Positions 4,872 to 49,785 of a DNA stretch of 56,201 nt are shown here, piece by piece. The DNA comes from an uncultured Nitrospira sp. (GTDB lineage: Bacteria; Nitrospirota; Nitrospiria; Nitrospirales; Nitrospiraceae): contig CAYHQK010000001.1 of assembly GCA_964358535.1 (NCBI GenBank), positions 1 to 56,201 of the forward strand, given 5' to 3'. The notes beneath the pieces are model-generated. The model was not told the DNA's origin and did no database searches. It was given only the letters and a program-made list of their open reading frames with translations. A program made the position numbers and the translations under genes. Position 1 is the stretch's first letter. The number at the start of each line of letters is the position of its first letter.

Positions 4872-4887
4872 AGCAGGAGACGTGCCA
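4872..4887 (-). promoter_or_regulatory. sigma-54-type -24/-12 promoter-like element (TGGCACgtctcCTGCT)
   Basis: GG and GC dinucleotides 12 nt apart as in the TGGCAC-N5-TTGCW consensus; about 50 nt upstream of the adaptor ATG at 4822, same strand. Confidence 0.5.
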
Positions 4888-5039
4888 CGGAAAACTCGCG
4901 AATCTACAAGAAAAGAATAGACGATCTAGGAGCCTTTTGCCACGGTGCAGAGAAAGAACCGTGGTGAAAGGCCACAGAGAAATAGGAGAGGCGAAAAACG
5001 AACAGGAGCCGATTGCCGAGTGGAAAGGATGACCTTCTG

Positions 5040-5687
5040 CTACTGAGGATTACGCTCCCGGCCAGAGCGGAACATCGCGGAGGAGATGCCAATTGTGAGT
5101 AGCGCGCCGGTGAAAGCCGCCGCCATATCCTTCTGCGCATCCCACTCATCCCCTTGCGTCCCGAGGTAGGTGCTCCCTAATTCAGGGCTCACGATCGTCG
5201 CCACCATCGCTTCCACGATTTCAAAGAAGCCGCTCTGGGCCAAGATGGCACTGACGGGCAGGTACGAGGCCCAGAATCCATGCACCCCAGTCAGGCGAAT
5301 GAGCAGTTCACGAAGGGGATAGACCAACAGGGCGCCATAGGAGAAATGGACGATGCGATCGAAGGGGTTGCGACTCAACGCGAAGAAGTCTTTGAGCCAA
5401 AAACCGAACGGCACTTCGGAGTAGGTATAGTGCGAACCGACGGCATGGAGCGTCAGGAACAGACCGATGAGACAGTAGGAGGTCACGGAAAACCGGAAAC
5501 GCCGATACGTGAAAACTAAAATGACGACCAGCGTCAGGGAGAGCAGATTTTCCAGCAGCCAATCGCGGCGATCGACCGGCGCAACAGCCAACCAGCTCCA
5601 GAACAGCCCATAGAGCAGCAGCAGCCCCGAGAGCAGACGCCCGTTTCCCCCTCGCGCACCGCTCCGATCCACGACGTTGGCTCTCAT
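5040..5687 (-). CDS. DUF2238 (YjdF-like) inner membrane protein
   Basis: Polytopic membrane ORF with ...HAVGSHYTYSEVP...NPFDRIVHFSYG...YLGTQGDEWDAQKDMAAAF...; Met at 5687 chosen (2 nt after the upstream stop); track start 5729 is the alternative. Confidence 0.75.
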   Translation of the reverse strand: MRANVVDRSGARGGNGRLLSGLLLLYGLFWSWLAVAPVDRRDWLLENLLSLTLVVILVFTYRRFRFSVTSYCLIGLFLTLHAVGSHYTYSEVPFGFWLKDFFALSRNPFDRIVHFSYGALLVYPLRELLIRLTGVHGFWASYLPVSAILAQSGFFEIVEAMVATIVSPELGSTYLGTQGDEWDAQKDMAAAFTGALLTIGISSAMFRSGRERNPQ

Positions 5688-5688
5688 A

Positions 5689-6330
5689 TCAGGCTGATTC
5701 GGATGCGACAACGTGGGGCTGGAGCGCATCAGGCCGGCGCAGGCTGCGCGCGATTATGAGCAATGTCACGCAGAGCAGCGCGCCATAGAACGCGGCAGCC
5801 ATATCTTTCTGCGCATCCCACACATCCCCCTGAGAACCCAGATAGGTGATGCCCAGCTCAGGATGGACGGCGCTCGCCACCCATGATTCCAGAATTTCCC
5901 AGAGCCCGCTCAACCCCAGGACGGTCATGACCGGCAGATAGTAAAGCAGCCAGCCTCGCGCATGGGCCAGCAACCGGAAGGCCTCCTCCATCGGATAGGC
6001 GAGGAGAAAACCGAAACTAAAGTGCACGACGCGATCGAAGTGATTCCGTCCAAGATGCAGCGACTGATCCATCCAGGCGCCGATCGGCACCTCCGCATAG
6101 GTATAGCGCACGCCGATCGTATGGAGGCTCAAGAACATCATGATCAAGACATAGGAGGCCGTCGAAAGGGGCAGCCACCGGTGCAGCACGATCAGTCCCA
6201 CCACCGCCAACGCCGGGAGGATGCTGGCGATGGCCCAGAATTCCCGATCCACCGGATTGTAGGCGGTCCAGCCGGACAGCACCACATACCAGGCAAACAG
6301 ACCCCATAATAGCGATTTATTTTGAACCAT
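5689..6330 (-). CDS. DUF2238 (YjdF-like) inner membrane protein, tandem paralog
   Basis: Same conserved blocks (HTIGVRYTYAEVP, NHFDRVVHFSFG, YLGSQGDVWDAQKDMAAAF); start moved to ATG 6330 (SD TAGGAGG 7 nt upstream) because track residues 1-33 are encoded by the type-A repeat. Confidence 0.75.
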   Translation of the reverse strand: MVQNKSLLWGLFAWYVVLSGWTAYNPVDREFWAIASILPALAVVGLIVLHRWLPLSTASYVLIMMFLSLHTIGVRYTYAEVPIGAWMDQSLHLGRNHFDRVVHFSFGFLLAYPMEEAFRLLAHARGWLLYYLPVMTVLGLSGLWEILESWVASAVHPELGITYLGSQGDVWDAQKDMAAAFYGALLCVTLLIIARSLRRPDALQPHVVASESA

Positions 6331-6345
6331 CACCGTGCCTCCTAA

Positions 6346-6468
6346 CAGGATGCTGAAAAAGTCCGCCAGCTTCGTTCTCGCATCGTTCAGACCCTCAACG
6401 TACCCTACGGGTACGCCTCGGCCCTTCACTCGCTGCGGCCTTGCTGGACGGCCTTTTTGAGCATCCTG
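6346..6468 (+). repeat. Type-A TIR element, short form (123 bp)
   Basis: Terminal inverted repeats CAGGATGCTGAAAAAGTCCGCCAGC / GCTGGACGGCCTTTTTGAGCATCCTG; central hairpin CGTACCC-tac-GGGTACG at 6399..6415; paralogous copies at 27378..27496 and 36034..36158. Confidence 0.85.
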
Positions 6469-6796
6469 TGGTTATTCTGACCGTGATACCACTCGACGCA
6501 TTTCAGCCGTATGCTTCACATACACCAAGCTGTTCCGCAGCCTGCTAAGATCGCGAGAGACGCAGCCGACGCAAACATGGTGATCACTCTACTAGGGAAA
6601 CGCCCTTCGTTCAAGCGCCGGGAGGCCTCCGGTGAATCTCGAATTGCGCGGGCCGAACGGACAGGCCGCAGTCACGCTTATTGCCAGCACACTCTCGTAC
6701 CGGTGACACCGACAGAAGACATAGACGCACTCTCGACTTATAAACTCCTGCAACAGAAGCCGACATGAAACCGAGCGCTTCAGCCAGAAATGTTCG

Positions 6797-14399: not shown

Positions 14400-15389
14400 T
14401 CAGGACAGCTCGATTGTTCCCACGCCATCTCGAAATAGAACCCTGCTGCCAAAGGACGCACACTTGGCTTGCATCGTTCTTTGCAAGAATACAATCTCCT
14501 GGTCCTTCGCCAGCCGGACATAGAAGTCTTCAATGCGCACGGGATGGAGAATGATCCGCGCGAGGCGGCCTCGTTCGAGTTCCAATATAAACAAGAAGGA
14601 CAGATCATTGCGCTCAGATGAATCGACCGCATAGTCGTCGATGAAATCCCCGGTCGAGTAGAGGATGGCCTTGCCCTTGTAGAGTTCGATGCCTTGCGGT
14701 GTGTGGTTGGAGTGGCCCCAATAGAGATCAGCCCCGAGATCGATGATCTGATGGGCCAGCATCCGCATGGCCACTGAGGGGGGTCCCCAGTTGGGGCCGA
14801 CGTGCGCGCTGACCATCACGAGATCAGCCTGACTGCGGACCTGTTTCAAGACCTGTGCAAGTCTCGACCGATAGGGTTCGACTAAGCCCTTCGCATCGTA
14901 GGCAATGTAATGAATGCCCGACTTCTTCTCCCCCGCTTCCCATTCCGGTTCGTTGTCCGTGAGGGAGACGAGTCCCATCCTGCCTTGCGGCAGGTTCACG
15001 AAAGCAGCCGTAAGGGCTTCGGCGAGCGAGGCGCCGGCGCCTGTCCGCTTAATGCCGGCTCGATCGAGCAGAACAAGGCATTCGAGCAACGCATCGGCTC
15101 CGTAATCCAACACGTGATTGTTGGCCAAGGTCACGCAATCAATCTTCGCAGCGCGAAGGAAATCGATCGCGCGGGGATGGGCACGAAAATGAAAGGCTTT
15201 GGATCCTGGCTGCCACTCGCGCCCCCGGCTGCTAATCACACATTCCAGATTGATCAGCCGTCGATCCGCCTTGAGCAGGAGCGGCAGCACATCGCTCCAG
15301 ATCTTGTCCGGTCCGATCGACTGATTCTGAATTACATACTGGTCCACCAGCCGCCCCAGCATGACATCCCCGGTCAGTGCGATCTGCAT
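14400..15389 (-). CDS. CapA family (PGA_cap metallophosphatase-like) protein
   Basis: MQIALTGDVMLGR..., ...ANNHVLDYG..., ...HWGPNW-like blocks of the CapA family; Met at 15389 chosen because the track N-terminal 18 residues are encoded by the type-C repeat. Confidence 0.75.
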   Translation of the reverse strand: MQIALTGDVMLGRLVDQYVIQNQSIGPDKIWSDVLPLLLKADRRLINLECVISSRGREWQPGSKAFHFRAHPRAIDFLRAAKIDCVTLANNHVLDYGADALLECLVLLDRAGIKRTGAGASLAEALTAAFVNLPQGRMGLVSLTDNEPEWEAGEKKSGIHYIAYDAKGLVEPYRSRLAQVLKQVRSQADLVMVSAHVGPNWGPPSVAMRMLAHQIIDLGADLYWGHSNHTPQGIELYKGKAILYSTGDFIDDYAVDSSERNDLSFLFILELERGRLARIILHPVRIEDFYVRLAKDQEIVFLQRTMQAKCASFGSRVLFRDGVGTIELS

Positions 15390-15406
15390 GACAGGCCCGC
15401 CCTCTT

Positions 15407-15486
15407 CGTCCGTCGTTCGTCTCTCGTATCTCGTCGTTCGCAAGCGGAGACCTTCCTCGCCTGCGAGATACGCTTCACGAGGGACG
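15407..15486. repeat. Type-C (CGTCGTTCG ... GAGATACGCTTCACGA) palindromic element
   Basis: CTCGTATCTCG (15422..15432) pairs with CGAGATACG (15465..15473); motif GAGATACGCTTCACGA recurs at 48109..48124 and, with T for C, at 45221..45236. Confidence 0.65.
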
Positions 15487-15501
15487 CTCCACAGTTCTTG
15501 C

Positions 15502-15529
15502 GCTGGCGGATTTTTTCAGCATCCTGCTA
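15502..15529 (-). repeat. Type-A element terminus (half copy)
   Basis: GCTGGCGGATTTTTTCAGCATCCTGCTA matches the reverse complement of the type-A end. Confidence 0.7.
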
Positions 15530-15988
15530 TCTCCCGAACCGCCCCATGAGCTGCGCCTCTGCCAAAACATGTCCCTTGCAGGCGTCCAACACCTGAGCCT
15601 TGGTCGCACGGGACATCAGATTCAACATGACATCCAACGCATAGAGCCTGAAGTAGTACCGATGGGGCTTACCAGGCGGCGGGCAGGGGCCGCCATAGCC
15701 GACCCGCTTGAAGTCGTTCAATCCTTGCAATGCCCCGTCTGGCAAACGGTCTTTGGTCGGCACGCCCTCCGTGAGCCCGCGCAGGTCGAGAGGGAGATTG
15801 TAGATCACCCAGTGCACCCACGTACCGACCGGCGCGTCGGGATCGTCCGCAATGATGACGAAGCTTTTCGTCGCAGCCGGCGGCACACCCCAATGGAGCG
15901 GCGGAGACAGATCCTCACCCTCACAAGTATAGCGTCGTGGGATGGGATCGCCGGACTTAAACGCCGAACTGGTGAGTTCAAAGCCCAT
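15527..15988 (-). CDS. YbhB/YbcL family Raf-kinase-inhibitor-like (PEBP) protein
   Basis: MGFELTSSAFKSGDPIPRRYTCEGEDLSPPLHW...DDPDAP.GTWVHWVIYN...GYGGPCPPPGKPHRYYFRLYALD; ATG at 15988 has SD AGGAG upstream. Confidence 0.85.
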   Translation of the reverse strand: MGFELTSSAFKSGDPIPRRYTCEGEDLSPPLHWGVPPAATKSFVIIADDPDAPVGTWVHWVIYNLPLDLRGLTEGVPTKDRLPDGALQGLNDFKRVGYGGPCPPPGKPHRYYFRLYALDVMLNLMSRATKAQVLDACKGHVLAEAQLMGRFGR

Positions 15989-16071
15989 CGGTTTGTTCAC
16001 TCCTGTACACCAGCACCGAACCGGGAACATGTTTCACGACCATGCCGGCGCAAAAGATCTTCATGCCGGGC

Positions 16072-16749
16072 CTACCCTCCTAGCGTCAGAACCCTGCGGA
16101 CTTCCTCCAGGCACGTGATCACCTCCTCGTCCTCGACCTGAGGAAACTGTTCATAGAACTGGCCAATCCCGAAGAACCACTCAGACGTATGCAGGACCAC
16201 CACGTCGTCGACAAGCATCTTCAGTTCAGCCAATACTCGTGGCGGCGCGACCGGCACCGCGGCGACGATCTTCGCCGTCTCCGCCTTGAGCAGGGCGCCC
16301 AGGGACGCATAGAATGTCGCCCCTGTCGCAATACCATCGTCCACCAGGATGACCGTCTGCCCTTTTAACGAGGGAAGGGCCCGCCCACCCCGGTACCGTT
16401 CAATTCTCCGACGAACTTCTCTCTCCTGACAGAGAATTTCCTTCTCCACGTCGGCCTTGCTCACGTGATACTCCCGGATCACATCCTCGTTCATATGCCG
16501 GTAGCCGGTTTCGGCCAGGGCGCCCATGGCGAGCTCGGGATTCGAGGGGGCTCCCAACTTGCGCGTGATGAACACATCCAAGGGGAGTCGCAACGCCAGA
16601 CTGATGTCGTAGCCCACCGTCACCCCGCCCCGAGGCAAGGCGATGACGATCGTGTTCTTCACATCCTTGTAACGGAGAAGCTTCTGAGCCAATCGTTGGC
16701 CTGCATCATGGCGGTCCCGAAATAGAGCGAACTCACCCTTTGGAATCAT
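16072..16749 (-). CDS. Phosphoribosyltransferase (predicted PRTase, COG1926-like), paralog 1 of 3
   Basis: FRDRHDAGQRLAQKL...ALPRGGVTVGYDISLAL.LPLDVFITRKLGAP.NPE...VILVDDGIATGATF (PRPP-binding loop). Confidence 0.8.
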   Translation of the reverse strand: MIPKGEFALFRDRHDAGQRLAQKLLRYKDVKNTIVIALPRGGVTVGYDISLALRLPLDVFITRKLGAPSNPELAMGALAETGYRHMNEDVIREYHVSKADVEKEILCQEREVRRRIERYRGGRALPSLKGQTVILVDDGIATGATFYASLGALLKAETAKIVAAVPVAPPRVLAELKMLVDDVVVLHTSEWFFGIGQFYEQFPQVEDEEVITCLEEVRRVLTLGG

Positions 16750-16794: not shown

Positions 16795-16810
16795 AGCAAG
16801 ACGGATGCCG
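16795..16810 (-). promoter_or_regulatory. sigma-54-type -24/-12 promoter-like element (CGGCATccgtcTTGCT)
   Basis: GGCAT-N5-TTGCT with canonical spacing, 46 nt upstream of the PRTase ATG (16749), same strand. Confidence 0.6.
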
Positions 16811-38073: not shown

Positions 38074-38133
38074 CCGCCCGATGCTGGTGCAACCGCCCGT
38101 CCGCAACGATTTATCCATGAAGGGATTGAGGAC

Positions 38134-38496: not shown

Positions 38497-38518
38497 CGTC
38501 CGACATGGCGATGGAGTC

Positions 38519-39724
38519 ATGATCGCCCACCGGCTCTTCGTCCTGGCGCTCCTCCTGACCACTCTGGCCTGTCCGCGTGGGAGCGCCGCAGTCGAGCCGA
38601 CAGGTGAGCAGCCTGACATTGAGGCCTTTGTTCGACAAGGCTGCCCTCATTGCACAGAGGCCAAACGGTTTCTCGAAGACCTTCAGCGAAACCGGACGAG
38701 CCTTCGGGTCGCGTTGCGTGATGTCGGAGAGGACCCTACCGCCTTGCGCCACCTGCAAGAGCTGGCTGTCCGGTATGGCGTCCGGGCAGTGGGTGTGCCG
38801 GCTTTTCATCTACGCGGCAACTTGATCGTTGGATATGCAAACGCTGAATCGACCGGCTCGAAAATCACGGCACTCCTCGATCAGCCATTCCCGGAATCCG
38901 CTAGCGGTTTGCAGGAAGGGGCTTGCCGGCCTGAAACCGATTCTTCCTGCATTGATACAGCGCGTCCTCCTCCCCGTCCCTCTGATACTGTTGAGACTCG
39001 CTGGTTTGGCCGTCTCAGTGCCGACGAACTGGGGCTCCCGCTCTTCACCATCGTCATCGGACTCCTGGACGGATTCAATCCCTGCGCGATGTGGGTCCTG
39101 CTCTTTCTATTGTCGTTGCTCGTCAATCTTCATGATCGACTAAAAATGGCCTTCATCGCCGGGACCTTCGTCGCCGTCAGCGGTCTAGTCTACTTCGCCT
39201 TCATGGCAGCCTGGCTCAATATGTTTCTCCTGATCGGGCTCTCACGCCCCCTCCAAATCGGGCTTGCCGGCATCGCCCTCTTGCTGGGAGCGGTCAATGT
39301 GCAGGACTTCTTCGTCTTGCATCGCGGCATCTCCCTGAGCATTCCAGAATCCGCCAAGCCGGGACTGTACGTTCGCATCCGCCGAATACTCCAAGCCGAC
39401 AACCTCACTGGCGCCCTGGCTGGCATCGTGGTTCTGGCAGGATTCGTGAACCTGGTCGAACTGCTCTGTACCGCCGGGCTCCCAGCCCTCTACACACAGA
39501 TTCTGACCCTGCAACAGATGCCTTCTTGGAAATATTATGGCTACCTCGGCCTCTATAACCTGGCTTACATTTTCGATGACAGCCTCATGGTGACCATTGC
39601 GGTGGTCACGCTCAGTCGCGAAAAACTGCAAAAGCGGGCAGGCCGTTGGCTGAAACTGATCAGCGGCCTGGTGATGGTGAGCTTAGGTGCCGTCTTGCTT
39701 CTTCACCCCAAGTGGCTTATCTGA
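38519..39724 (+). CDS. Thioredoxin/glutaredoxin-fold (CPHC) domain fused to a polytopic membrane domain
   Basis: Signal, GCPHCTEAKRFLEDL...GVPAFHLRGNLIVGY glutaredoxin-like fold, then six or so TM helices with GFNPCAMWVLLFLL and ELLCTAGLP. Confidence 0.6.
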   Translation: MIAHRLFVLALLLTTLACPRGSAAVEPTGEQPDIEAFVRQGCPHCTEAKRFLEDLQRNRTSLRVALRDVGEDPTALRHLQELAVRYGVRAVGVPAFHLRGNLIVGYANAESTGSKITALLDQPFPESASGLQEGACRPETDSSCIDTARPPPRPSDTVETRWFGRLSADELGLPLFTIVIGLLDGFNPCAMWVLLFLLSLLVNLHDRLKMAFIAGTFVAVSGLVYFAFMAAWLNMFLLIGLSRPLQIGLAGIALLLGAVNVQDFFVLHRGISLSIPESAKPGLYVRIRRILQADNLTGALAGIVVLAGFVNLVELLCTAGLPALYTQILTLQQMPSWKYYGYLGLYNLAYIFDDSLMVTIAVVTLSREKLQKRAGRWLKLISGLVMVSLGAVLLLHPKWLI

Positions 39725-39756
39725 TTTATGCGCAGAGAGGAGCAATCCATTTAGCC

Positions 39757-41931
39757 ATGCCGCAATCATCACCTCGCTCCACAGTTGATTCACTCAAACC
39801 GTTTTTCCATCCTCGTTCCGTCGCGGTCATCGGCGCATCACGCAATAACACACACATCGGCTACCGGCTGCTCGAATCGCTCCAAGAAGGCCGCTTCGCC
39901 GGCACGATCCTCCCGGTCAATCCACAGGCCACCGAGATTGCAGGACTTCCAGCGTTTCCCTCGCTGAGATCGATTCCCGACCCTGTCGATCTTGCAATCA
40001 TTGCAGTGCCTCCCAACGCAGTCCTCGATGTCATTGACGACTGTGCCGCCAAGAACGTTACAGCAGTCATCCTCATCACGGCGGGATTTGCCGAAACAGG
40101 CGGATCGGGAACTTCGCTCGAACAGCAACTCCGAGAGAAAGTCCGGCAGCATGGGATACGCCTGATCGGGCCGAATTGCTTCGGACTCATGAACCTCGAT
40201 CCAACCGTTCGTCTCAACGCGACCTATACGCCGATATTCCCTCCCGCCGGTCGAGTCGCCATCGCCTCGGAAAGCGGCGGCCTCGGGCTCGCCGTGGTCA
40301 TGGCAGCACAGCGCCTGAATCTCGGCCTCTCCAACTTCGTCAGCGTCGGCAATCATGCGGATGTCACAGCCATCGATCTTCTGGAGTATTGGGAGCAGGA
40401 CCGAGCCACCGATGTCATCCTCCTCTATCTCGAAACCATCGTCGATCCTCAACGCTTCAGACAGATCGCCGAGCGGGTGGGACGAAAAAAACCGATCGTC
40501 GTCTTGAAAGCAGGCCGGACATCGGCAGGCCAATCTGCTGCCGGATCACACACGGCGGCTCTGGCCACGAACGATAAGGCGGTGGACGCATTGTTCACAC
40601 AATGCGGAGTGATCCGGGCAAAAACCCTGGAAGAGTTTCTGGCATTGGCCACCGGCCTGTCTGCCCAGCCGATCCCTGGCGGGTACAACGTCGGCATCCT
40701 GACCAATTCCGGCGGCCCCGGAGTGCTCTGCGCCGATAGTTGCGCAACAGAAGGGCTCGCCGTATCGGAATTGTCCAGGCAGACACAAGCGACCCTCGCA
40801 TCCTTTCTGCCTCCCACAGCGGCGCTCAGAAATCCTGTCGATATGATCGGCTTTGCCACAGAAGATCAACATGCGAAGGCCGTCGAAACGATGCTCAAGG
40901 CGGACGAGACCGACGCCCTCATCATCCTGCACGTATCGGTCAGAGCGACAGATAATGACCAAGTGGCAGCAGGAATCGTGCGAGGCATCAGCGCAGCCAG
41001 ACAAACAATCGGACGAAACAAACCGGTCTATCTCTGCTGGATGGCAGAAGGAGACTTGGAGCGGACATTTACCGTCGAGGGGGAAACCATTCCCACCTAC
41101 CAGCACCCTGAGACTCCGGCCCGCATCCTCCATCATGCACTCACATATGACGCCTGGCGACGACAACCAATCGGGCAGGTGCCGAGCTTCAGGGATATTG
41201 ATCTATCGAAGGCACAAACGATATGCGCCAAGGCGCTGTCGGAGCGTGGATCTGGCTGGCTCACCACAGAAGAGACCCATGCCATTCTCGCAGCGATGAA
41301 ATTACCGCTTGCGCCAGGAGCAGTGGCAACCAGCGCAGAGGAGGCGGTGAAGTTGGCGCGCGCGATCGGATTTCCTGTTGCGCTGAAACTCGCGTCCTGT
41401 CAGATCGTTCACAAGACCGAGATCGGCGCGGTGCGGTTGAATCTGGCAGATGAACAAGCCGTGCACAACGCCTTTGAAGCGATCAGGTCCAGACTCGCGC
41501 AGGATCACAAGCTGGATGCGATGGAAGGAGTGCTCGTGCAGCCGATGCTGTCAGGCGACATAGAAGTGATGGCAGGCATGACCCGCGATCCACTCTTCGG
41601 GCCGCTGATCGCCTTCGGCTTAGGAGGCATTCACGTGGAGATTCTCGGCGACGTGCAGTTCCGCGTTGCTCCGCTGACCGACCGCGATGCAGCCCAGATG
41701 GTGCGCGAGATTAAGGGCTATCGGTTGCTGCAAGGCTACCGAGGCCAATCGCCAGCCGACGTAAGAGCGATCGAAGAGGTCCTGCTTCGCCTGTCGCAGC
41801 TGGTGGAAGAAATCCCTGAAATCAGCGAACTCGATCTGAATCCGATCTTTGCTCTACCGGAAGGACAAGGCTGCAAAATCGTTGATGCGAGAGTCCGTGT
41901 TTCGATGAATACGACTCTACCTGCAGATTAG
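39757..41931 (+). CDS. ADP-forming acetyl-CoA synthetase / acetate--CoA ligase family protein (fused CoA-binding + ATP-grasp)
   Basis: FFHPRSVAVIGASRN...GY, ...LIGPNCFGL..., ...NSGGPGVL..D, C-terminal ATP-grasp (...VALKLAS..I.HKTE.GAV.LN...); Met 39757 preferred to track start inside the upstream gene end. Confidence 0.8.
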   Translation: MPQSSPRSTVDSLKPFFHPRSVAVIGASRNNTHIGYRLLESLQEGRFAGTILPVNPQATEIAGLPAFPSLRSIPDPVDLAIIAVPPNAVLDVIDDCAAKNVTAVILITAGFAETGGSGTSLEQQLREKVRQHGIRLIGPNCFGLMNLDPTVRLNATYTPIFPPAGRVAIASESGGLGLAVVMAAQRLNLGLSNFVSVGNHADVTAIDLLEYWEQDRATDVILLYLETIVDPQRFRQIAERVGRKKPIVVLKAGRTSAGQSAAGSHTAALATNDKAVDALFTQCGVIRAKTLEEFLALATGLSAQPIPGGYNVGILTNSGGPGVLCADSCATEGLAVSELSRQTQATLASFLPPTAALRNPVDMIGFATEDQHAKAVETMLKADETDALIILHVSVRATDNDQVAAGIVRGISAARQTIGRNKPVYLCWMAEGDLERTFTVEGETIPTYQHPETPARILHHALTYDAWRRQPIGQVPSFRDIDLSKAQTICAKALSERGSGWLTTEETHAILAAMKLPLAPGAVATSAEEAVKLARAIGFPVALKLASCQIVHKTEIGAVRLNLADEQAVHNAFEAIRSRLAQDHKLDAMEGVLVQPMLSGDIEVMAGMTRDPLFGPLIAFGLGGIHVEILGDVQFRVAPLTDRDAAQMVREIKGYRLLQGYRGQSPADVRAIEEVLLRLSQLVEEIPEISELDLNPIFALPEGQGCKIVDARVRVSMNTTLPAD

Positions 41932-43679: not shown

Positions 43680-44108
43680 TCACGGCAGCGTCTTCAGCCA
43701 AGCCTGAATGTCGGCAATCTGTTGCTCGGTCAAGGCGTCTTTTAAATGCGGCATCATGTGCCGCCCTTCGGACAGAATTCTCCAGAATGCCTGCTCGTTC
43801 GACGACACGGGATTGCCAGCCAACCGAGGGCCGATGCCTCCTGTCGCTCGCGAGCCATGACAGACGACGCAACTGGCGTTGTAGAGTCCCTCGCCTCGCT
43901 GGCTGTCCCCCATGGGATGCCTCAATGCCATCCCCCTCGAACTATGTTTATCGGCGCCCTCTGGGCCACCGTCGCTCGCCCAAACAAGATAACCATCCTC
44001 GTTGAGGGAGGCTCCCAGGAATAACACAAAGAGCGCAAAGCAAATCACCAACTGTTGCATGGACATCAATCCATTTCTCCTCCCCCTATCACGGAAACAC
44101 TCCATCAT
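43680..44108 (-). CDS. c-type cytochrome (monohaem)
   Basis: Signal-like N-terminus, CVVCHG motif, ...GRHMMP... distal Met; start ATG overlaps the upstream stop (ATGA at 44105..44108). Confidence 0.75.
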   Translation of the reverse strand: MMECFRDRGRRNGLMSMQQLVICFALFVLFLGASLNEDGYLVWASDGGPEGADKHSSRGMALRHPMGDSQRGEGLYNASCVVCHGSRATGGIGPRLAGNPVSSNEQAFWRILSEGRHMMPHLKDALTEQQIADIQAWLKTLP

Positions 44109-44575
44109 TTGCGTTTCGCCGGGCCTTCATTTCTGAGGAGAGCCAGATACGCCAAGGTGTCCGTGAGTTCCTGAGTCGTCATGGTGGTGTCAGGAAACAT
44201 GCCTGTGCCGGGATGGCCTTCGCGTATGGCGTTGAAGCGGGCTTTGTCGCTGGTCAATTGAAGGCTCTTGGGATTCCGCAAATCGGCAGGCTGCGGATTC
44301 AGTTGTGCAATGAGCGCAGCGGTGTCGGCAGCGAGTTGCGGTTGCCGATCTCGATACCCATCGATACCATGACAATAGCAGCAGACGCCCTTCCCGTTGA
44401 AGACCTCTCTGCCACGTCCGGCATCGCTTTGATCTGTCGCGCTCTTCTTCGACGACCGGGGACCGGCCCAGACAGGCATGTCGAATATCTCCGTGAACTG
44501 GATCGCCGACAATCCCACGAGGAGGAAGCAGACAAGAGAGAGCCCCCTGAGAATCTTGCTCGTCCGGTCAGTCAT
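44105..44575 (-). CDS. c-type cytochrome (monohaem)
   Basis: TM/signal anchor, CCYCHG motif, ...HPGTGMFP...; Met 44575 with SD AAGGA preferred to track start 44617. Confidence 0.75.
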   Translation of the reverse strand: MTDRTSKILRGLSLVCFLLVGLSAIQFTEIFDMPVWAGPRSSKKSATDQSDAGRGREVFNGKGVCCYCHGIDGYRDRQPQLAADTAALIAQLNPQPADLRNPKSLQLTSDKARFNAIREGHPGTGMFPDTTMTTQELTDTLAYLALLRNEGPAKRK

Positions 44576-44601
44576 CACATCATCCTTCCATTCAATTTTT
44601 A

Positions 44602-45081
44602 TCAGTGCTGTCCGCAACAGACCTTATAACGGTCCTCCGGAATGTTCTTCATATTCAGAAAAACTGTTTCGCGTTCTTCCGCACTGGTTACCTGATCGAT
44701 GGAGGGATAGAGCACCCGCTCTTCTTTCATGTTGTGAGAACCGAGCAGAGTCAACAGCGATTGCTCTTCTTGATCGCTGTCGGGGTTTTGCTCCGCGACC
44801 TTCTGGTAAATGACTTCGAGTTGTTCTCCGATCTGGCGATGTTCGTTTCGCATGACGAAAGTCGGTCCGCCTTCAGCCATGCCGGTTTTCTCTTCCCAGA
44901 GAGGAAACAACAGATCCTCTTCCCAGACGATATGACGCTGCAAGCCGACCTTGAAGTCTTCGAACGCGTCCTTGGCCTTGGCGAAATCGGACCGCTTCAT
45001 CTTCTGAAAGGTCTTGAACAACTCATCCAACCGGTCGTGATCCTCTTCAAAGAACGCGCTGATCGTCTTGCGCTCACTCAT
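44602..45081 (-). CDS. Hemerythrin (HHE cation-binding) domain protein
   Basis: ...FFEEDHDRLDELF..., ...LQRHIVWEEDLLFP..., ...NEHRQI..., ...HNMKEERVLYP... His/Glu ligand pattern of hemerythrin-like domains. Confidence 0.8.
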   Translation of the reverse strand: MSERKTISAFFEEDHDRLDELFKTFQKMKRSDFAKAKDAFEDFKVGLQRHIVWEEDLLFPLWEEKTGMAEGGPTFVMRNEHRQIGEQLEVIYQKVAEQNPDSDQEEQSLLTLLGSHNMKEERVLYPSIDQVTSAEERETVFLNMKNIPEDRYKVCCGQH

Positions 45082-45130
45082 AGGGTCCCTCCGTAGACAC
45101 TAGCTGCCAGGTGTTCAAACAGGCCGTCCT

Positions 45131-45240
45131 CTTCGTACGTCACTCGCAAATCGTAAACGAGACAGGCGCGACTCGCACAGATGAAACCTCCGACCCTTCT
45201 CGCTCTTCTCGCAAGACCCGCGAGATACGTTTCACGAACC
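45131..45240. repeat. Type-C palindromic element (degenerate copy)
   Basis: ...TCGTAAACGAGAC ... CGCGAGATACGTTTCACGAACC; shares GAGATACG(C/T)TTCACGA with 15466 and 48109. Confidence 0.5.
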
Positions 45241-45807
45241 GCTTTTGACTTTATACTCCAAATGACAGGCCACGCAGGCCTTCAATACGTTGTTGAATTG
45301 CGGCAGGATCAGTTTTAAATCTTTCGTAGGAATGATACGCGCCAATTCCTCCACCGCCGCTTGGTGCGCTTGAGCCAATTCAGCATAGTCAGGAGGACGC
45401 GGCCCCGGCTGCTGCGCCTCGGGGCGAGGCGCGTCTTGGCGCGCCAGGGATTGGGTTGGTGAGAGAAGATGCCGATGCAGGAAAAATCCGAGGTGCGACT
45501 CGGTCAGGCCTTTCGCCAACTCATAGTCCTCTTCGACCAGCGCGTTCACGATCACTTGAATCGTTTCCAGATGCTGCAACATGACCGCGCGATGCTCTTT
45601 TCCAGCCGATGGAGACAAGGGAATAGGCTGCCTGGTATCGGAGGTGAGATAGGGATTCGAGCGCGCTTCCTCCCGATAGGGCTCTCTCTCGACACAACCG
45701 GCTGATAACACAGCCAAAATGGCCACCAGCGCCACTTCCCAGAGAATGACCTGTGTCCCTCTATATAATGGTAGCGATAAAATCCGAGACATTTGCACAT
45801 CTCCCAA
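45232..45807 (-). CDS. Cytochrome c'-like (class II) haem protein, lipoprotein-type signal
   Basis: LSAGC lipobox, helical body, single CVACH motif 11 residues from the C-terminus as in class II cytochromes c. Confidence 0.55.
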   Translation of the reverse strand: MGDVQMSRILSLPLYRGTQVILWEVALVAILAVLSAGCVEREPYREEARSNPYLTSDTRQPIPLSPSAGKEHRAVMLQHLETIQVIVNALVEEDYELAKGLTESHLGFFLHRHLLSPTQSLARQDAPRPEAQQPGPRPPDYAELAQAHQAAVEELARIIPTKDLKLILPQFNNVLKACVACHLEYKVKSGS

Positions 45808-45829
45808 TAAAATCAGATTGTTAGAGCCA

Positions 45830-46789
45830 TCAGGCCGTCTTTTCAGCCTTTTCCACCTGTTCCCAGTAGGCGTTCACCCTGCCCTGAATATGAGCGATCA
45901 CGTCTGTCTGTACCGTCGGCTCGAACAGGTGGCGGAACCGGCCTTGAAGCTTGAGGTAATCTTCAACCGGCTGGAGCTTGGGCCTGTAGGTATGCACCAC
46001 TGCTCCATTGAGCGCTTCCTTGAGCGGCCAGAGCCCGCACTCGACCGCGAGCCTCGCCACGTCCGGCGTATGGGCTGGATCGAAGAGCCACCCGGTCGGG
46101 CAGGCGGCAAATGCAAGAAACAGTTTCGGGCCTGGATAGGCTGCTGCTCGTGCAAACTTTTCTTCGAGATCGAGCGGAAAGCGCGGCGACACGGTCGCCA
46201 TGTAGGGAGGCTTGTGGGCGCGCCAGATTTCGAAGATGTCTTTCTTCTCCTGCGTCGTCCCGGACGGATGTTGCGCCGCGCATGGCGACGTTGAGGTGCA
46301 GGCTCCATAGGGTGTGGCAGGACTGAGCTGCACGCCGGTATTGCCGTAGGCTTCGTTGTCGTAGCAGAAATAGTAGAAGTCCAACTTTCTGGTGATGGCT
46401 CCGGATGTCGAGGAGAGGGCCATGTCGTAGGTCGAACCGTCGCCGCCTAACACCACGACTTTCAGATCCTCTTCTTTCGGCAGCCGGCCTTTCGCGATCA
46501 ACACATCGAGCGCATCCCGCACCCCCTGCGCGCCGGCCGGCGCAGAGCCCATCGTCGTGTAGAGCCAGGAGGCATCGAGCGGCGTAAAGGGAAAAGCCGC
46601 CAAGTTCGTAAAGCAGCCGGCCGCATTGACGTAGACGACGTGACTGCCGAGCACTTTGGACGCGAGCCGCAAAGATTCCAGCCCACCGCAGCCGGCGCAC
46701 AACGACGTCCCGGGAAACACGTGCTCCTCACGGGGGATCTGATGCAGCTCTTTGAAGATGTGGGGCTCCCAGGCCATATCGTCTTTCAC
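45830..46789 (-). CDS. porB: Pyruvate/2-oxoacid:ferredoxin oxidoreductase beta (TPP-binding) subunit
   Basis: ...CAGCGG..., ...VVVLGGDGSTYDMALSSTSGA...YFCYDNEAYGNTGVQ... TPP motif; GTG start overlaps porA stop. Confidence 0.85.
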   Translation of the reverse strand: MKDDMAWEPHIFKELHQIPREEHVFPGTSLCAGCGGLESLRLASKVLGSHVVYVNAAGCFTNLAAFPFTPLDASWLYTTMGSAPAGAQGVRDALDVLIAKGRLPKEEDLKVVVLGGDGSTYDMALSSTSGAITRKLDFYYFCYDNEAYGNTGVQLSPATPYGACTSTSPCAAQHPSGTTQEKKDIFEIWRAHKPPYMATVSPRFPLDLEEKFARAAAYPGPKLFLAFAACPTGWLFDPAHTPDVARLAVECGLWPLKEALNGAVVHTYRPKLQPVEDYLKLQGRFRHLFEPTVQTDVIAHIQGRVNAYWEQVEKAEKTA

Positions 46790-48027
46790 TTGCCCGTTTT
46801 GAGATCGTGCGCGAGATATTGCAACTGCTCCATCTCCCGATGCTCGCTTTCCGTATAGAGCAGGACCGGCCCGATCCCTTGGCCGCGGATTCCCGCCTCT
46901 GCCGTCTGTTCAAAGATCGCCCGGAACTCGCCTTCCGAGATATTTTTGCCTCCCAAGCCTCCGATGAACGAACAGAGCGCCCGCGGCCGCAACGCTTCAT
47001 GGTACAGACAGGCTGCGACCTCCTGAAAGAGAATGCCTCCCTGCCCCGGAGAGAGATTCTGATCCAACACTGCCACGGCCCGCCTGCCCTGCAAGGCCTG
47101 GCGGATCGCATCGGCCGGCCAGGGGCGGATCATGCGCAGCCGTAACAGGCCCACTCGCTTGCCCTCTGCCCTGGCCACATCGACCGCTCCCTTGCCTTTG
47201 CTCGCAAAGGCGTTGGTCATGATCAACACATCCTCCGCGTCATCGAGCCGATACCCCTCAACCACGTCGTAGCGGCGGCCACAGAGTCGCTCGAACTCGA
47301 CCGCAGCCTCCTCGTGAACACGCAAGGCATTCATCGAGGCGAGATGCATCTGGTGCCGGAAGTAACTGTACGTGGCGCCGCCGAATACCGCTGTCCCCAA
47401 CGCATGGGGCGCCGAGGCTTTGAAGCCCAAATGAGTCGGCCGAAAGGGCGGCAGAAAAGCCTGCACCATCGCGGGGTCCGGCAGGACCACCGGCTCGCGA
47501 GTGAAGGACAAATAGAATCCGTCGAGGTTAACCATAACCGGCAGGCAGACGCGCGGATCTTCTGCGATGCGATAGGCCATGAGAATCGAGTCCACGACCT
47601 CCTGACAGGTCTCCGCATGGATCTGGAGAAAACCGGAATCGCGCGCCGCCAGCACATCGTTGTGATCCGGCTCCAGCGTGATGGGAGAAGCCAGGGCCCG
47701 CGAAACATTCACCAGCACCAAGGGCACCCGCCAGCCGGCGATGGTGTATAGCACTTCAAACGCATGGAGCAGCCCCTGGCTCGACGTGGCCGTGAACACG
47801 CGGGCCCCAGTCGCAGCAGCAGCCCCCGCCGCAGTCATCATCGAATGCTCCGAGTCCAAGGTGACGAAGCGAGCGTTCAAGGTTCCATTGCCACACCAGG
47901 CTGACAGGGCCTCGACGATTTCCGTTTGCGGAGTGATCGGAAAGGCCGGCACATAATCGACGTCAGCCAGGCGAGCCCCCCAGGCCGCAGCAAAATTGCC
48001 GGTCATCATGTCTGCGGTCATCGCCAT
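46786..48027 (-). CDS. porA: Pyruvate/2-oxoacid:ferredoxin oxidoreductase alpha subunit
   Basis: MTGNFAAAWGARLADVDYVPAFPITPQTEIVE......FV.LDSEHSMMTAAGAAAATGARVFTATSSQGL. Confidence 0.85.
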   Translation of the reverse strand: MAMTADMMTGNFAAAWGARLADVDYVPAFPITPQTEIVEALSAWCGNGTLNARFVTLDSEHSMMTAAGAAAATGARVFTATSSQGLLHAFEVLYTIAGWRVPLVLVNVSRALASPITLEPDHNDVLAARDSGFLQIHAETCQEVVDSILMAYRIAEDPRVCLPVMVNLDGFYLSFTREPVVLPDPAMVQAFLPPFRPTHLGFKASAPHALGTAVFGGATYSYFRHQMHLASMNALRVHEEAAVEFERLCGRRYDVVEGYRLDDAEDVLIMTNAFASKGKGAVDVARAEGKRVGLLRLRMIRPWPADAIRQALQGRRAVAVLDQNLSPGQGGILFQEVAACLYHEALRPRALCSFIGGLGGKNISEGEFRAIFEQTAEAGIRGQGIGPVLLYTESEHREMEQLQYLAHDLKTGK

Positions 48028-48029
48028 CT

Positions 48030-48129
48030 CCGTCGTTCGTGAAGCGTCGCTCGTCGTTCGCGGAACAATCTCGGAACCTTCCGCAATGCTTGCTGCTTGC
48101 GCTTCACGAGATACGCTTCACGATTCACG
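48030..48129. repeat. Type-C palindromic element between porGD and porA
   Basis: CGTCGTTCGTGAAGCGTCGCTCG (48031..) pairs with CGAGATACGCTTCACGATTCACG (..48129); overlaps the last codons of porGD. Confidence 0.65.
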
Positions 48130-49026
48130 TCCGACCTCCGTCTCCCGCTCGACCGTCAAGGCATCGGTCGGACAGACTTCGACGCAATCCAAGCAGCCTT
48201 TGCAATGAGGATAGTAAATCGCCGGTTTGCCATCCGGCTTGATCGTGATCGCCCCCTCCGGACAGTTGGCAAAACAGAGCCAGCAGCCATTGCACAGGTC
48301 CGGACGCAAGACTGGCCGAAACGTGCGCCAGCCTGCCACCGAGCGGATCGCTGAATTAGGGCCTGCGGTAATTCTTGCGGTCCCTCTGGTCGGCGGGTCG
48401 TAGGTTGGTGTGCGAAGCGGCACCGGCGCCGACGGCCTGCGTAAGCCGACATCGATGTCCACCATCGGCACCCTCTCATAACAGTGCGCAGCCACAGTTT
48501 GATTACGTTCGATCATGGAAGCCGCAAGTCCGAGCTCCGCCAACTCCCGTGCAATGGCTTCGCGGATCGACTCCTGACCAAGCCCAACGAGTCTGCCCGC
48601 CACGGCACCGAGCAGGGCGCTGATCGCGGTTCGTTTGCCAAACTGCTGCAGGGCGATACCAGTCAAATCCAGCGTAGTGAAACGGCCAGGCAGAGAGGTC
48701 TGGGACTGGAGTTGCTCGGCTGTGAACGACGAATTGACGAAGACGACCGTCCGTTCATCGATCCCGTCCAGCACATGGGCCGCAGGATCGTGCATGAGCG
48801 AGGCATCGGCGATGACGACAAGATCGGGATGGACGATGACGCCCCGCTCGCGAATCGGCTCCTTGGCCATTCTCGTGAAGGCCGCCACCGGCGCGCCGCG
48901 CCGTTCCGGCCCATAAATCGGCGAATCCTGCGCTACGAACCCTTCGAGGAACGCCGCCGTTCCCACGATGCGGCTCGCAGTCCTGGCTCCCTGCCCCCCT
49001 CGGCCATGAAAACGAACGGCTCGCAT
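48118..49026 (-). CDS. Fused gamma + delta (2x[4Fe-4S] ferredoxin) subunit of pyruvate/2-oxoacid:ferredoxin oxidoreductase
   Basis: N-terminal RFHGRGGQGARTASRIVG (gamma), C-terminal CNGCWLCFANCP ... CKGCLDCVEVCP (delta). Confidence 0.8.
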   Translation of the reverse strand: MRAVRFHGRGGQGARTASRIVGTAAFLEGFVAQDSPIYGPERRGAPVAAFTRMAKEPIRERGVIVHPDLVVIADASLMHDPAAHVLDGIDERTVVFVNSSFTAEQLQSQTSLPGRFTTLDLTGIALQQFGKRTAISALLGAVAGRLVGLGQESIREAIARELAELGLAASMIERNQTVAAHCYERVPMVDIDVGLRRPSAPVPLRTPTYDPPTRGTARITAGPNSAIRSVAGWRTFRPVLRPDLCNGCWLCFANCPEGAITIKPDGKPAIYYPHCKGCLDCVEVCPTDALTVERETEVGRES

Positions 49027-49030
49027 CGGG

Positions 49031-49387
49031 TTATGTCCTCAGTGCTGCCTGAGTCTCCCCCGCTTGTGCGCAGGCCACACAGGCAGGGGCAGCAGGGAGC
49101 GCCTCCAGCCTGGACTGGGGGATGTCCTGTCCACATTGCTCGCATCGGCCATACCGCCCGGCCTCCAGCTTGACGAGCGCCCGGTCGATCGCCTCAATCT
49201 CGGCCTTCATCCGCTCATCCAGACGATCAAGCAGCTGAACCATCGTCTCCCCCTGCCCTCGCTCCTGCGCTTCGCTTTCGACATCGGTTTCCAGCCAGAG
49301 CAGCTCGTCTTCCGTCTGGGCAACCTGACGAAACAGCTCACGCCGTTGAGCGAGTAACTTCTTTCGAATATCGGCGACCGTGAGCAT
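49031..49387 (-). CDS. TraR/DksA family C4 zinc-finger protein
   Basis: Coiled-coil then GRYGRCEQCGQDIPQSRLEALPAAPACVACA; Met 49387 has SD GGAGGG 8 nt upstream. Confidence 0.75.
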   Translation of the reverse strand: MLTVADIRKKLLAQRRELFRQVAQTEDELLWLETDVESEAQERGQGETMVQLLDRLDERMKAEIEAIDRALVKLEAGRYGRCEQCGQDIPQSRLEALPAAPACVACAQAGETQAALRT

Positions 49388-49415
49388 CACAACGCCCTCC
49401 CTCATAACGGCAACG

Positions 49416-49727
49416 TCAGCTACAACATTTATCCATTTTTTCCTTCACAGCCTCTCGTCCCGCCTTGACCGCCGCCTCGACATCCGCGGCTTTCTCTGCA
49501 ATGAAATGCTTCCCCCGCTCAATGGTCTCATCAAGGGCGGCTCGCGCCTCCTTCGCCTTCTCCAGGACTTCCTCCTCGGCCCTCCTGGCATATCTCTTCA
49601 AATCCTGGCGCGTTTCCTCTCCCGACTTCGGGGCGAGAAGCAGACCCGCCACCACTCCGGCCACGGCTCCCCCTAAGAATGCCAGTGCAACAGCCTGTCC
49701 TGAACATTTGCTCTCGTGATTGTCCAT
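49416..49727 (-). CDS. YtxH domain protein
   Basis: ...FLGGAVAGVVAGLLLAPKSGEETRQDLK... is the YtxH signature; ATG 49727 sits 7 nt after SD AGGAGG. Confidence 0.75.
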   Translation of the reverse strand: MDNHESKCSGQAVALAFLGGAVAGVVAGLLLAPKSGEETRQDLKRYARRAEEEVLEKAKEARAALDETIERGKHFIAEKAADVEAAVKAGREAVKEKMDKCCS

Positions 49728-49769
49728 GATCATTCCTCCTTGGATAAACAGGGTCCTGTTCGATTGAAA

Positions 49770-49785
49770 AGCGAAGGCCGTGCCA
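49770..49785 (-). promoter_or_regulatory. sigma-54-type -24/-12 promoter-like element (TGGCACggcctTCGCT)
   Basis: Perfect -24 block, GC at -12 with canonical spacing; about 43 nt upstream of the ytxH ATG. Confidence 0.5.

Follow-up and report, generated by a model that had tools for sequence, protein, structure and literature searches.

Nine putative -24/-12 boxes and the genes behind them

The stretch analyzed here, referred to as the window, comprises 56,201 nucleotides of DNA from an uncultured Nitrospira sp. (contig CAYHQK010000001.1, positions 1 to 56,201). It contains nine elements resembling sigma-54 (-24/-12) promoters, which had been picked out by eye in a preliminary description of the same DNA. 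The window has a G+C content of 59% and is about 87% coding, with 6.5 kb in intergenic stretches of at least 40 nt. Genes were mapped using open reading frames (ORFs), Pfam, NCBIfam, and synteny with relatives. All nine 16-mers of the preliminary list were recovered, each exactly once and with the coordinates and strands claimed, and two finer points of that list proved correct as well: four sites share the form GGCAT-N5-TTGCT and three end in ATGCA. The general form of the box in the window is yGGCAy-N5-wTGCw, with position -26 often being C or A, not T. The coordinates of the boxes, the operons behind them, and the palindromes upstream are collected in Table 1.

All nine boxes are intergenic and each is oriented toward the adjacent gene. 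Six of the intergenic regions have same-strand genes on both sides, and the box was on the correct strand in every one (6/6). The C of the -12 element was found 44-73 nt before the most probable start codon, in agreement with the leaders of 40-75 nt and the correct strand described earlier. For the 4872 box this distance is 51 nt, with the lipoprotein start MLKKS at 4822 taken as the start of the RND adaptor; for the 16795 box it is 47 nt (ATG at 16749), and the 20162 and 36431 boxes lie 65 nt and 71 nt before the ATG codons at 20241 and 36516, respectively. A position upstream of a gene, in the same orientation and near the translation start (approximately 0-200 nt), marks genuine sites in genomes with sigma-54 (Francke et al. 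2011, PMC3162934). The orientation of the boxes and their distance to the start match this description.

Table 1. Putative sigma-54 boxes, the predicted operons they would serve, and the palindromes upstream of them. Matrix scores are approximate.
Feature	Coordinates	Strand	Sequence	Description
Box	4872..4887	-	TGGCACGTCTCCTGCT	RND adaptor/pump operon; 16.0 bits, best matrix score of the window
Box	16795..16810	-	CGGCATCCGTCTTGCT	Phosphoribosyltransferase 1; 12.0 bits
Box-like element	20162..20177	+	CGGCATGTCAATTGCT	TAG-interrupted Cys-rich gene; 14.5 bits
Box	25165..25180	+	CGGCATGGCGCTTGCT	Cys-rich gene, dodecin, MlaC operon; 14.5 bits
Box	30986..31001	-	AGGCATCACTGTTGCT	cDPG-synthetase-like gene and malic enzyme; 12.3 bits
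Box	31223..31238	+	TGGCTCGCCCTATGCA	Four-CBS protein; 12.7 bits
Box	32760..32775	+	TGGCACCGACGATGCA	Small 80-aa gene and hsp20; 14.0 bits
Box	36431..36446	+	TGGCATTGCCGATGCA	Phosphoribosyltransferase 3 and genes after it; 14.2 bits
Box	49770..49785	-	TGGCACGGCCTTCGCT	YtxH-DksA-POR operon; 15.2 bits
Palindrome	4959..4977	-	CTGTGGCCTTTCACCACGG	One mismatch to CTGWNG-N7-CNWCAG; starts 90 nt upstream of 4872 box
Palindrome	16901..16919		CTGAGGGAGATTTCCACAG	Exact relaxed match; 109 nt upstream of 16795 box
Half-site	20032..20040	+	GACAGTGCC	130 nt upstream of 20162 box; adjoins MITE-like repeat end
Perfect palindrome	25057..25075		CTGTCGCCTATTGCAACAG	0 mismatches to CTGTYGC-N5-GCRACAG; 108 nt upstream of 25165 box
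Palindrome	31072..31090		CTGTCGCGAATCACCACAG	In divergent region; 89 nt from 30986 box, 151 nt from 31223 box
Palindrome	32611..32629		CTGAGGTATTTGGCAACAG	Exact relaxed match; 149 nt upstream of 32760 box
Degenerate palindrome	36295..36317	+	ATGCGGAAAGAGGCGACAG	Strong right half GCGACAGTGCC; starts 136 nt upstream of 36431 box
Palindrome	49900..49918	-	TTGTTGCCTTTCGCGCCAG	Two mismatches; 133 nt upstream of 49770 box
Possible tenth unit	20885..21001	+	CTGTAGCGGATTTCTACAG, TGGCCCCATTCTTGCC	Palindrome 20885-20903, weak box 20986-21001, gene at 21075
RND operon	516..4822	-		HlyD-type adaptor 3644-4822 (HlyD_D23, 1.2e-55), AcrB-type pump 516-3647 (ACR_tran, 4.6e-295)
16795-box operon	14400..16749	-		Phosphoribosyltransferase 1, PEBP-family and PGA_cap-family proteins (Pfam)
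25165-box operon	25226..27062	+		Cys-rich 104-aa protein, coiled-coil protein, dodecin, MlaC (Pfam Dodecin, MlaC)
30986-box operon	27853..30928	-		cDPG-synthetase-like protein, 79-aa protein, malic enzyme (Pfam malic enzyme)
31223-box operon	31310..32583	+		Four-CBS protein (Pfam CBS x4), 88-aa protein; both kept in relatives
Genes after 32760 box	32820..36024	+		80-aa protein, Hsp20, phosphoribosyltransferase 2, BCAM0308-family protein, tandem Usp (Pfam)
36431-box operon	36516..41931	+		Phosphoribosyltransferase 3, tandem Usp, cytochrome c, 401-aa protein, ADP-forming acyl-CoA synthetase
49770-box operon	43680..49727	-		YtxH, DksA-type zinc finger, POR gamma/delta, alpha, beta, cytochrome c', hemerythrin, two cytochromes c

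Orthologous regions were fetched from genome and metagenome collections, and these relatives are labelled L005-L146 (L147 is the extension of the window's own contig; A1-A7 denote alignments). The gene neighborhood at 14400..16749 is also present in L144 and L146, the gene order at 25226..27062 in L135 and L136 (with the start M at 25226 taken from homologue alignment A4), and the order at 43680..49727 (genes assigned by Pfam) in L138, L140, and L142. Synteny of the 27853..30928 operon was seen in L005, L087, and L095. The source is a Nitrospirota bacterium of groundwater. Proteins of the window also occur on contigs from metagenomes of Hainich aquifer well H43. Among genomes, the cDPG-synthetase-like protein is matched best in Nitrospirae/Nitrospira metagenome-assembled genomes (MAGs), at 83, 71, and 68% identity, and the YtxH and phosphoribosyltransferase proteins are 80-92% identical to proteins from Nitrospirota and Nitrospira MAGs.

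The three phosphoribosyltransferase-domain proteins are paralogous, the Usp are two tandem proteins, and the POR is of the Pyrococcus type. Phosphoribosyltransferase 1 (16072-16749, minus strand) is unusually well conserved between phyla, with 76-78% identity to proteins annotated from a cyanobacterium (Petrachloros) and Syntrophaceae, and it matched no specific NCBIfam enzyme family above the cut-off. The label "cDPG-synthetase-like" reflects a weak PDB match to cyclic 2,3-DPG synthetase only (E = 0.0018), and the BCAM0308-family protein matches NCBIfam NF040826 at 2.2e-65. In the 36516..41931 operon the gaps between genes are 22-60 nt, and the acyl-CoA synthetase is of the NCBIfam acetate--CoA ligase type. 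No further box was found between the genes of 32820..36024, which would be co-transcribed across a 344-nt gap (33555-33898). The small gene behind the 32760 box was found where it had been placed. No support was found for the winged-helix label given to it: the PDB search was empty and no DNA-binding family was detected in the 80-aa protein at 32820. It had also been proposed that nearly all the boxes precede stress, dormancy, or fermentation genes. A stress or low-oxygen theme is plausible from the BCAM0308-family, Usp, and POR genes, but the RND pump operon does not share it, and "dormancy/fermentation" would follow from gene families.

Match statistics and conservation of the boxes

Both strands of the window were scanned with a sigma-54 position matrix whose frequencies approximate those of the compilation of Barrios et al. 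(1999), so that the scores are approximate. The nine sites (12.0-16.0 bits) fell within the top 11 matches, and ranks 1-6 were all listed sites. Across the whole window, 11 matches reached at least 12 bits compared to 3.8 +/- 1.8 in dinucleotide shuffles, and six reached at least 14 bits compared to 1.0 +/- 1.0. Independently of the matrix, the pattern GGCAY-N5-WTGCW occurred six times against 1.09 expected. Within intergenic DNA, nine matches of at least 12 bits were found compared to 0.53 +/- 0.72 (the maximum was four in 300 shuffles), whereas the approximately 48 kb of coding DNA held 1-3. The remaining matches of at least 12 bits, at 23654, 48701, and 54577, are all inside genes.

The spacing of the two halves was examined by letting the gap between the TGGCACG and TTGCW half-matrices vary from 0 to 8 nt. 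A gap of 4 nt gave nine intergenic matches and the other gaps gave 0-2. Outside intergenic DNA, 0-7 matches were found across the gaps and the canonical gap (GG-N10-GC) was not raised. The density of boxes in intergenic DNA exceeds that in both shuffled and coding sequence, as the earlier argument against chance had supposed.

Seven of the nine boxes are conserved in relatives, often as the best-conserved island of the intergenic region. Six of them (four-CBS, 80-aa/hsp20, cDPG-like, second Cys-rich gene, YtxH, and phosphoribosyltransferase 1) are kept in 3-9 relatives each. When 10 sequences of the roughly 400-nt intergenic region are aligned (A2), invariant columns run most densely within the 31223 box, TGGCyCGCCmTATGCA. 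At 32760, CCTGTGGCACCGACrATGCA (CCTGTGGCACCGACRATGCA) is invariant in seven sequences and the DNA further upstream cannot be aligned (A3); high-scoring boxes also stand in front of hsp20 in the more distant Nitrospirota L006 and L007. The 30986 box is identical in L005, L086, and L087 and reads AGGCATTACTGTTGCT in L095, with indels in the flanks (A1, A2); it is absent from L006 and L007. The 36431 box is identical in L087, the sole relative covering the site.

At the YtxH operon, CTGGCAC and CTTCGCTT are invariant in five Nitrospirota contigs with unrelated upstream neighbors, while the spacer varies between GGC, GCC, and AAT (A5). Fixed -24 and -12 blocks around a varying spacer are the pattern that would be expected of a -24/-12 promoter. 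The 16795 box appears as GGGCACTCGTTTTGCT in L144 (A6) and as CGGCACCCRTCTTGCT (CGGCACCCrTCTTGCT) in L145 and L146, and the 25165 box as CGGCACGGCGCTTGCT in L134, CGGCATGGCGCTTGCC in L135, and TGGCATGGCGCTTGCT in L136 and L137. In these two sets, the substitutions go toward the TGGCAC consensus. Canonical-only spacing, intergenic placement, orientation, a short leader, and conservation thus all support the original proposal that these elements are of the sigma-54 type.

An upstream palindrome, and repeats near the boxes

When the 200 nt in front of each of the nine boxes were searched for common k-mers, GCrACAGT emerged, and relatives provided the full element: a 19-bp palindrome, CTGTyGC-N5-GCrACAG, with TGT-N11-ACA geometry and an A/T-rich center (relaxed form CTGWNG-N7-CNWCAG). 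It is present 89-151 nt upstream of eight boxes, and a half-site is found at the ninth (20162). The relaxed form is matched exactly at five boxes, with 30986 and 31223 sharing a copy, and with one or two mismatches at three. The window holds five exact relaxed copies (16901, 20885, 25057, 31072, and 32611) where 0.36 would be expected, and each has a sigma-54-type box 101-151 nt downstream, although such window counts are optimistic because the motif was derived from the same regions. The 9-mer GCRACAGTS (five against 2.1 expected) and the strict 19-mer with up to two mismatches (three against 1.09) are suggestive by position only. Of the 18 exact copies in 292 kb of DNA from Nitrospirota, 15 had a box 100-151 nt downstream, many of these 15 being orthologues of one promoter.

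The palindrome is also kept in relatives at similar distances. The copy at 25057 is identical in L134 and reads CTGTTGCCTATTGCACCAG in L137, and that at 16901 is kept in L145 and L146, 110-111 nt upstream of the box. The 31072 copy, exact to the relaxed pattern and with two mismatches to the strict one, has its core ACTGTmGC in 8 of 10 relatives (A2). At 32611, each sequence in A3 carries at most two substitutions, GGCAACAGT is invariant, and the distance is 146-149 nt in all relatives. The degenerate copy at 36295 contains an exact GCRACAGTS match and is identical in L087 at 135 nt. The 9-mer GACAGTGCC at 20032 has only two copies in the window, the second of them 122 nt upstream of the 36431 box. 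The YtxH palindrome is perfect in L142 (CTGTTGCCTTTTGCGACAG) and has one mismatch in L138 and L139 (CTGTTGCCTTTYGCGACAA), at 132 nt in all three; its spacer, CTTTC, is common to the 4959 palindrome. Between the YtxH box and this enhancer-like element, at about 49860-49880 (minus strand), there is a second palindrome, CCTGGAATGCCCCAGG, which is invariant in five Nitrospirota contigs (A5, columns 213-231). It could be the site of a second regulator.

In L138 and L139, palindrome and box also occur together at the cytochrome c' promoter and at a second unrelated promoter, neither of which was used in deriving the motif. The cytochrome c'-hemerythrin genes at L138 18240 and L139 15317 (plus strand) have a box of their own, CGGCATGCCCATTGCT, with the palindrome 133 nt upstream, and a further box and palindrome precede a SoxA/TsdA-like cytochrome gene at L139 2387 (plus strand). 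These pairs suggest that the regulon would extend beyond the genes in the window. In L138, arsenic-resistance genes are inserted after POR; in L139 they follow directly after the DksA-type gene and POR is absent.

Conservation at the same distance, the pairing in 292 kb, and the L138 and L139 promoters provide the independent evidence for the putative element. The motifs are placed non-randomly, they are conserved, and box and palindrome are associated. In its place, its dyad symmetry, and its coupling to a box, the palindrome looks like the predicted upstream activator sequence (UAS) of a bacterial enhancer-binding protein (bEBP). The guess that the boxes belong to a single regulon gains support from this common, conserved element. 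Other candidate features were also sought. The 11-bp palindrome GCGACAGTCGC was not enriched (32 matches against 32 expected with two mismatches), inspection by eye of the AATCA-rich stretches between palindrome and box gave no clean match to the IHF pattern WATCAA-N4-TTR, and the distances from palindrome to box had no clean 10.5-nt periodicity.

The exact palindrome at 20885 may belong to a tenth promoter unit, which we put forward tentatively. Its box at 20986 is weak (only 9.3 bits), was absent from the earlier list, and precedes the gene at 21075 by 75 nt. L092 shows partial conservation of the palindrome in its left arm and spacer (A7).

Two families of repeats occur among these features. 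The first resembles a miniature inverted-repeat transposable element (MITE) with terminal inverted repeats CAGGATGCTGAAAAAGTCCGCCAGC; its copies are at 6346-6468, 12605-12816, 16976-17164, 19963-20036, 27378-27496, and 36034-36159, with solo ends at 4802-4829, 15502-15529, and 33673-33700. All copies were called intergenic, and that at 27378-27496 has perfect 26-nt arms 69 nt apart. One repeat end, coding for "MLKKSAS...", lies across the start predicted for the RND adaptor gene. The possibility that the boxes are parts of a mobile repeat was rejected, as the MITE-like copies overlap no box and no full palindrome. Only the half-site at 20032-20040 is touched, sharing 5 nt with the copy that ends at 20036. 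The second repeat is short, with a GC-rich palindromic core GCGCGCGTTGCGCGAGCAC, and has five copies (456-496, 10813-10853, 12653-12693, 17098-17138, and 43517-43557), partly nested in the MITE-like elements. Separately, 41953-43340 (minus strand) holds a predicted pPIWI-associated nuclease domain gene (PF18165, 5e-15) and a 192-aa partner of unknown family, situated between the acyl-CoA synthetase and cytochrome c genes. Their third-position G+C is 0.54-0.59, below that of their neighbors, and the pair may be an inserted fragment of a defence system.

Weighing the sigma-54 interpretation, and known systems

We consider it likely that the nine boxes are sigma-54 promoters, mostly paired with a palindrome, and that they form one regulon whose activator is encoded elsewhere. 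Sigma-54 RNA polymerase would be held as a closed complex on the -24/-12 box. One AAA+ bEBP, or close paralogues, would bind the palindrome, reach the polymerase through DNA looping, and use ATP to open the promoter, so that the operons would be switched on together. Binding of sigma-54 and a bEBP to these elements is what we infer from the sequence. By site, the predicted promoter is well supported at seven boxes, likely at 4872, and possible at 20162. The number of putative promoters in the window is at least eight, probably nine, and possibly ten.

Several points weigh against this interpretation. Neither an rpoN gene nor a bEBP gene was found in the window, in the 4.7 kb past its right end (L147), or in any Nitrospirota locus of the relatives; the search used Pfam (PF00158) and regular expressions for GAFTGA and the RpoN box in the window, 148 fetched loci, and L147. 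Nitrospira genomes are known to encode the sigma-54-dependent activators FleQ and FleR (PMC5767232), a table in PMC3372290 includes one Nitrospirae genome in an unlabelled column that we take to mean RpoN-positive, and it is on this literature for the phylum that the sigma-54 machinery of the present population rests. The matrix is approximate, and the palindrome counts carry the two qualifications given with them above. The palindromes at 4959, 36295, and 49900 have one or two mismatches to the relaxed pattern, and the 20162 box has a half-site only. This last box is the least supported of the nine putative ones: in L092, its sole relative, the site reads GGCGCATGTCAATTGAAG with no GG-N10-GC, and the homologous ATG (ATGTCAATTG) is a start codon behind a GAGGTGG site. 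L092 has also lost the GC at the four-CBS box, where the -12 element reads TATACC and the rest of the box is kept. No relatives were obtained for the 4872 site, which has no comparative support, and the RND pump has no obvious fit to a low-oxygen theme.

The lack of an activator gene in the window, already remarked upon in the preliminary description, held when Pfam was run on all sizeable ORFs and the six frames were searched for GAFTGA and ESELFG. The gene that runs off the end of the window was ruled out as an activator, being a 1050-aa hybrid kinase. It is the last of three consecutive sensor kinases at 50170-56201 (plus strand), extended in L147 (4559-11745) and divergent from the YtxH promoter. 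In order, these are a kinase of PAS-HisKA_2 type, a hybrid kinase carrying two receiver domains, and the 1050-aa REC-4xPAS-HisKA-HATPase-REC protein; over their first 300 nt, the genes for the second and third share 82% identity. It is a speculation that the three kinases provide phosphorelay input to a response-regulator-type activator encoded elsewhere. Oxygen or energy limitation would be a reasonable candidate for the signal, a more speculative point than the binding of sigma-54 and a bEBP, judging from the families of the genes served, among them an O2-sensitive type of POR, cytochrome c', and hemerythrin.

Another possible explanation, which we regard as rather unlikely, is that the promoters are genuine sigma-54 promoters served by several activators, with the palindrome variants being the sites of paralogous bEBPs and the window holding several small regulons. 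The arms (CTGTCGC, CTGAGGT, and CTGTGGC, besides half-sites) differ by promoter and each variant is conserved in its own set of orthologues, the distances from palindrome to box fall into several classes within 89-151 nt, and the RND pump and the low-oxygen-type genes need no common signal. However, all the variants have the same 19-bp geometry with outer CTG...CAG and an A/T-rich center, and the CTTTC spacer at the RND adaptor and YtxH sites, together with the 9-mer shared by 20162 and 36431, suggests one recognition code.

A less probable explanation applies to 20162 and 25165 only, which could be conserved translation-start regions of Cys-rich genes and not promoters. It was tested because CGGC-ATG- is found in both boxes. 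At 25169 the ATG shares the frame of the Cys-rich ORF and has a plausible ribosome-binding site, AGGGGA, 6 nt upstream, homologues were carried across the region by some gene callers, and the first-gene orthologue in L092 begins at the ATG mentioned above, where the box is lost. Against this, the near-invariant Met of the Cys-rich family is the one at 25226 (A4). This family (about 100 aa, LLPVCCvCGLiRDE...W...YRK.H...THtYCP.C) gave 63 matches in the homologue search and has no Pfam model. In L134 the ATG is replaced by ACG, and in L137 it is followed after 11 codons by a TAG in frame, so the ATG at 25169 is not a start codon, yet the box is kept in both. A translation start at 25165 was therefore ruled out: the changes in relatives destroy the start codon while improving the match to TGGCAC, and a perfect palindrome stands upstream. 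At 20162, the frame from the ATG of the box stops after 10 codons, and the half-site is again present upstream.

Two observations concern the genes at these sites. The gene at 20241-20459 (plus strand) is interrupted by TAG at 20334-20336, where all homologues and the paralogue at 25226-25540 have an invariant Trp (TGG-to-TAG); a pseudogene, a population variant, or an assembly error is likely. In L134 and L135, conservation of the nucleotide sequence extends to the leader at 25181-25225 (plus strand), CATTCGAGTGACGAsGCAACGAG..., which gene callers translated as protein. An Rfam scan of the window, including the leaders, matched no family.

That the boxes and palindromes are operators of an ordinary factor, for example the 80-aa protein at 32820, at sigma-70 promoters is very improbable. 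The four-CBS and 80-aa/hsp20 boxes are conserved including their spacers, beyond what sigma-54 would need, and L092 keeps the four-CBS block without the GC. No sigma-70 consensus was found at the nine box positions in a scan with the E. coli consensus, from which Nitrospirota promoters may depart. On the other side, the nine spacers are unrelated and only the -24 and -12 blocks are common to them, the YtxH spacer varies around fixed blocks, the strict dependence on spacing suits sigma-54 and not a dimeric factor, and the 80-aa protein has no detectable DNA-binding family. Chance combined with selective reading of GG-N10-GC in DNA of 59% G+C, a loose pattern that is abundant and has three matches of at least 12 bits in coding DNA, is hardly credible given the intergenic excess, the canonical-only spacing, the strand agreement, and the conservation in relatives described above.

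The nine elements are thus best regarded as probable sigma-54 promoters of one regulon. No earlier description of this regulon was found in the literature searched. What appears to be new is the enhancer motif, the unusually dense packing of putative promoters (nine or ten within 45 kb), and the control of DosR/lxa-like genes by sigma-54 in Nitrospirota. The mechanism itself is canonical control by sigma-54 and a bEBP, as in textbooks, and involves no new principle. The Nitrospirota include the main nitrite oxidizers of soils, aquifers, and wastewater plants. Little is understood of how they survive the loss of oxygen, and the response has no known regulator. Box and 19-bp palindrome together would offer a concrete regulatory code that can be searched genome-wide for the regulon and its activator.

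As in the canonical systems (NtrC at glnAp2 and NifA at nifH), GG-N10-GC stands here in a TGGCAC-N5-TTGCW context less than 100 nt from the start, a dyad site lies about 100-150 nt upstream, and one type of enhancer accompanies several operons. One palindrome per promoter was seen, in contrast to the tandem sites typical of NtrC. The NifA site is TGT-N10-ACA and the NtrC site is TGCACC-N5-GGTGCA. Every copy of the palindrome here is TGT-N11-ACA, one base longer than a NifA-type UAS, and because of this difference it was assigned to no known activator. Among sigma-54-dependent stress promoters, Enterobacteria have those of pspA, under PspF, and of the small heat-shock gene ibpB. They share with the window a small heat-shock or envelope-stress gene on a sigma-54 promoter under a dedicated activator, but they are single operons with other activators and enhancers, compared to a 45-kb island with nine putative promoters.

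The gene content is closer to persistence loci of other phyla. The lxa locus of Burkholderia cenocepacia comprises low-oxygen-activated Usp, alpha-crystallin, and metabolic genes with an Anr-like motif at 17 intergenic points; BCAM0308 names one of its genes, and its authors liken it to the mycobacterial DosR regulon (PMC3721108). Both islands combine multiple Usp, Hsp20, a BCAM0308-family protein, and transport or metabolic enzymes with one regulatory motif repeated intergenically, in an aerobe that needs to survive anoxia, the likeness being one of gene-family overlap only. They differ in phylum and in control, which is by Anr/FNR-type TGA-N6-TCA sites on sigma-70 promoters in lxa and would be by sigma-54 boxes with a distant palindrome here. 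Activation by low oxygen, a property of lxa, would be a prediction for the present island. The DosR (DevR) regulon of Mycobacterium tuberculosis includes tandem-domain Usp, Hsp20 (Acr), CBS-pair, phosphoribosyltransferase-domain, and PGA_cap/CapA-like members. Overlapping protein families thus stand behind one repeated regulatory site in both cases, but DosR belongs to the NarL-type response regulators and works on sigma-70-type promoters, and mycobacteria are not known to have sigma-54.

A comparison within the phylum is offered by Nitrospira marina. At low O2, its most strongly induced proteins include Usp and a Pyrococcus/Thermotoga-type POR, and the induced clusters have Usp genes at their flanks; the study names no promoter or regulator and never uses the word sigma (PMC8115632). 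Compared by protein type, the same POR and Usp lie behind boxes in the window. We regard it as possible, while stopping short of calling it probable, that the window represents a DosR/lxa-like survival regulon for oxygen limitation that is wired through sigma-54 in Nitrospirota, with one bEBP reading TGT-N11-ACA, jointly activating the Usp, Hsp20, CBS, phosphoribosyltransferase, POR, and ADP-forming acyl-CoA synthetase operons, and maybe fed by the three-kinase phosphorelay. If true, this bEBP would be the regulator so far missing from the proteome response of N. marina to low O2. Persistence families that answer to DosR in mycobacteria and to Anr-like factors in Burkholderia would here have come under a third type of control, one that depends on an enhancer.

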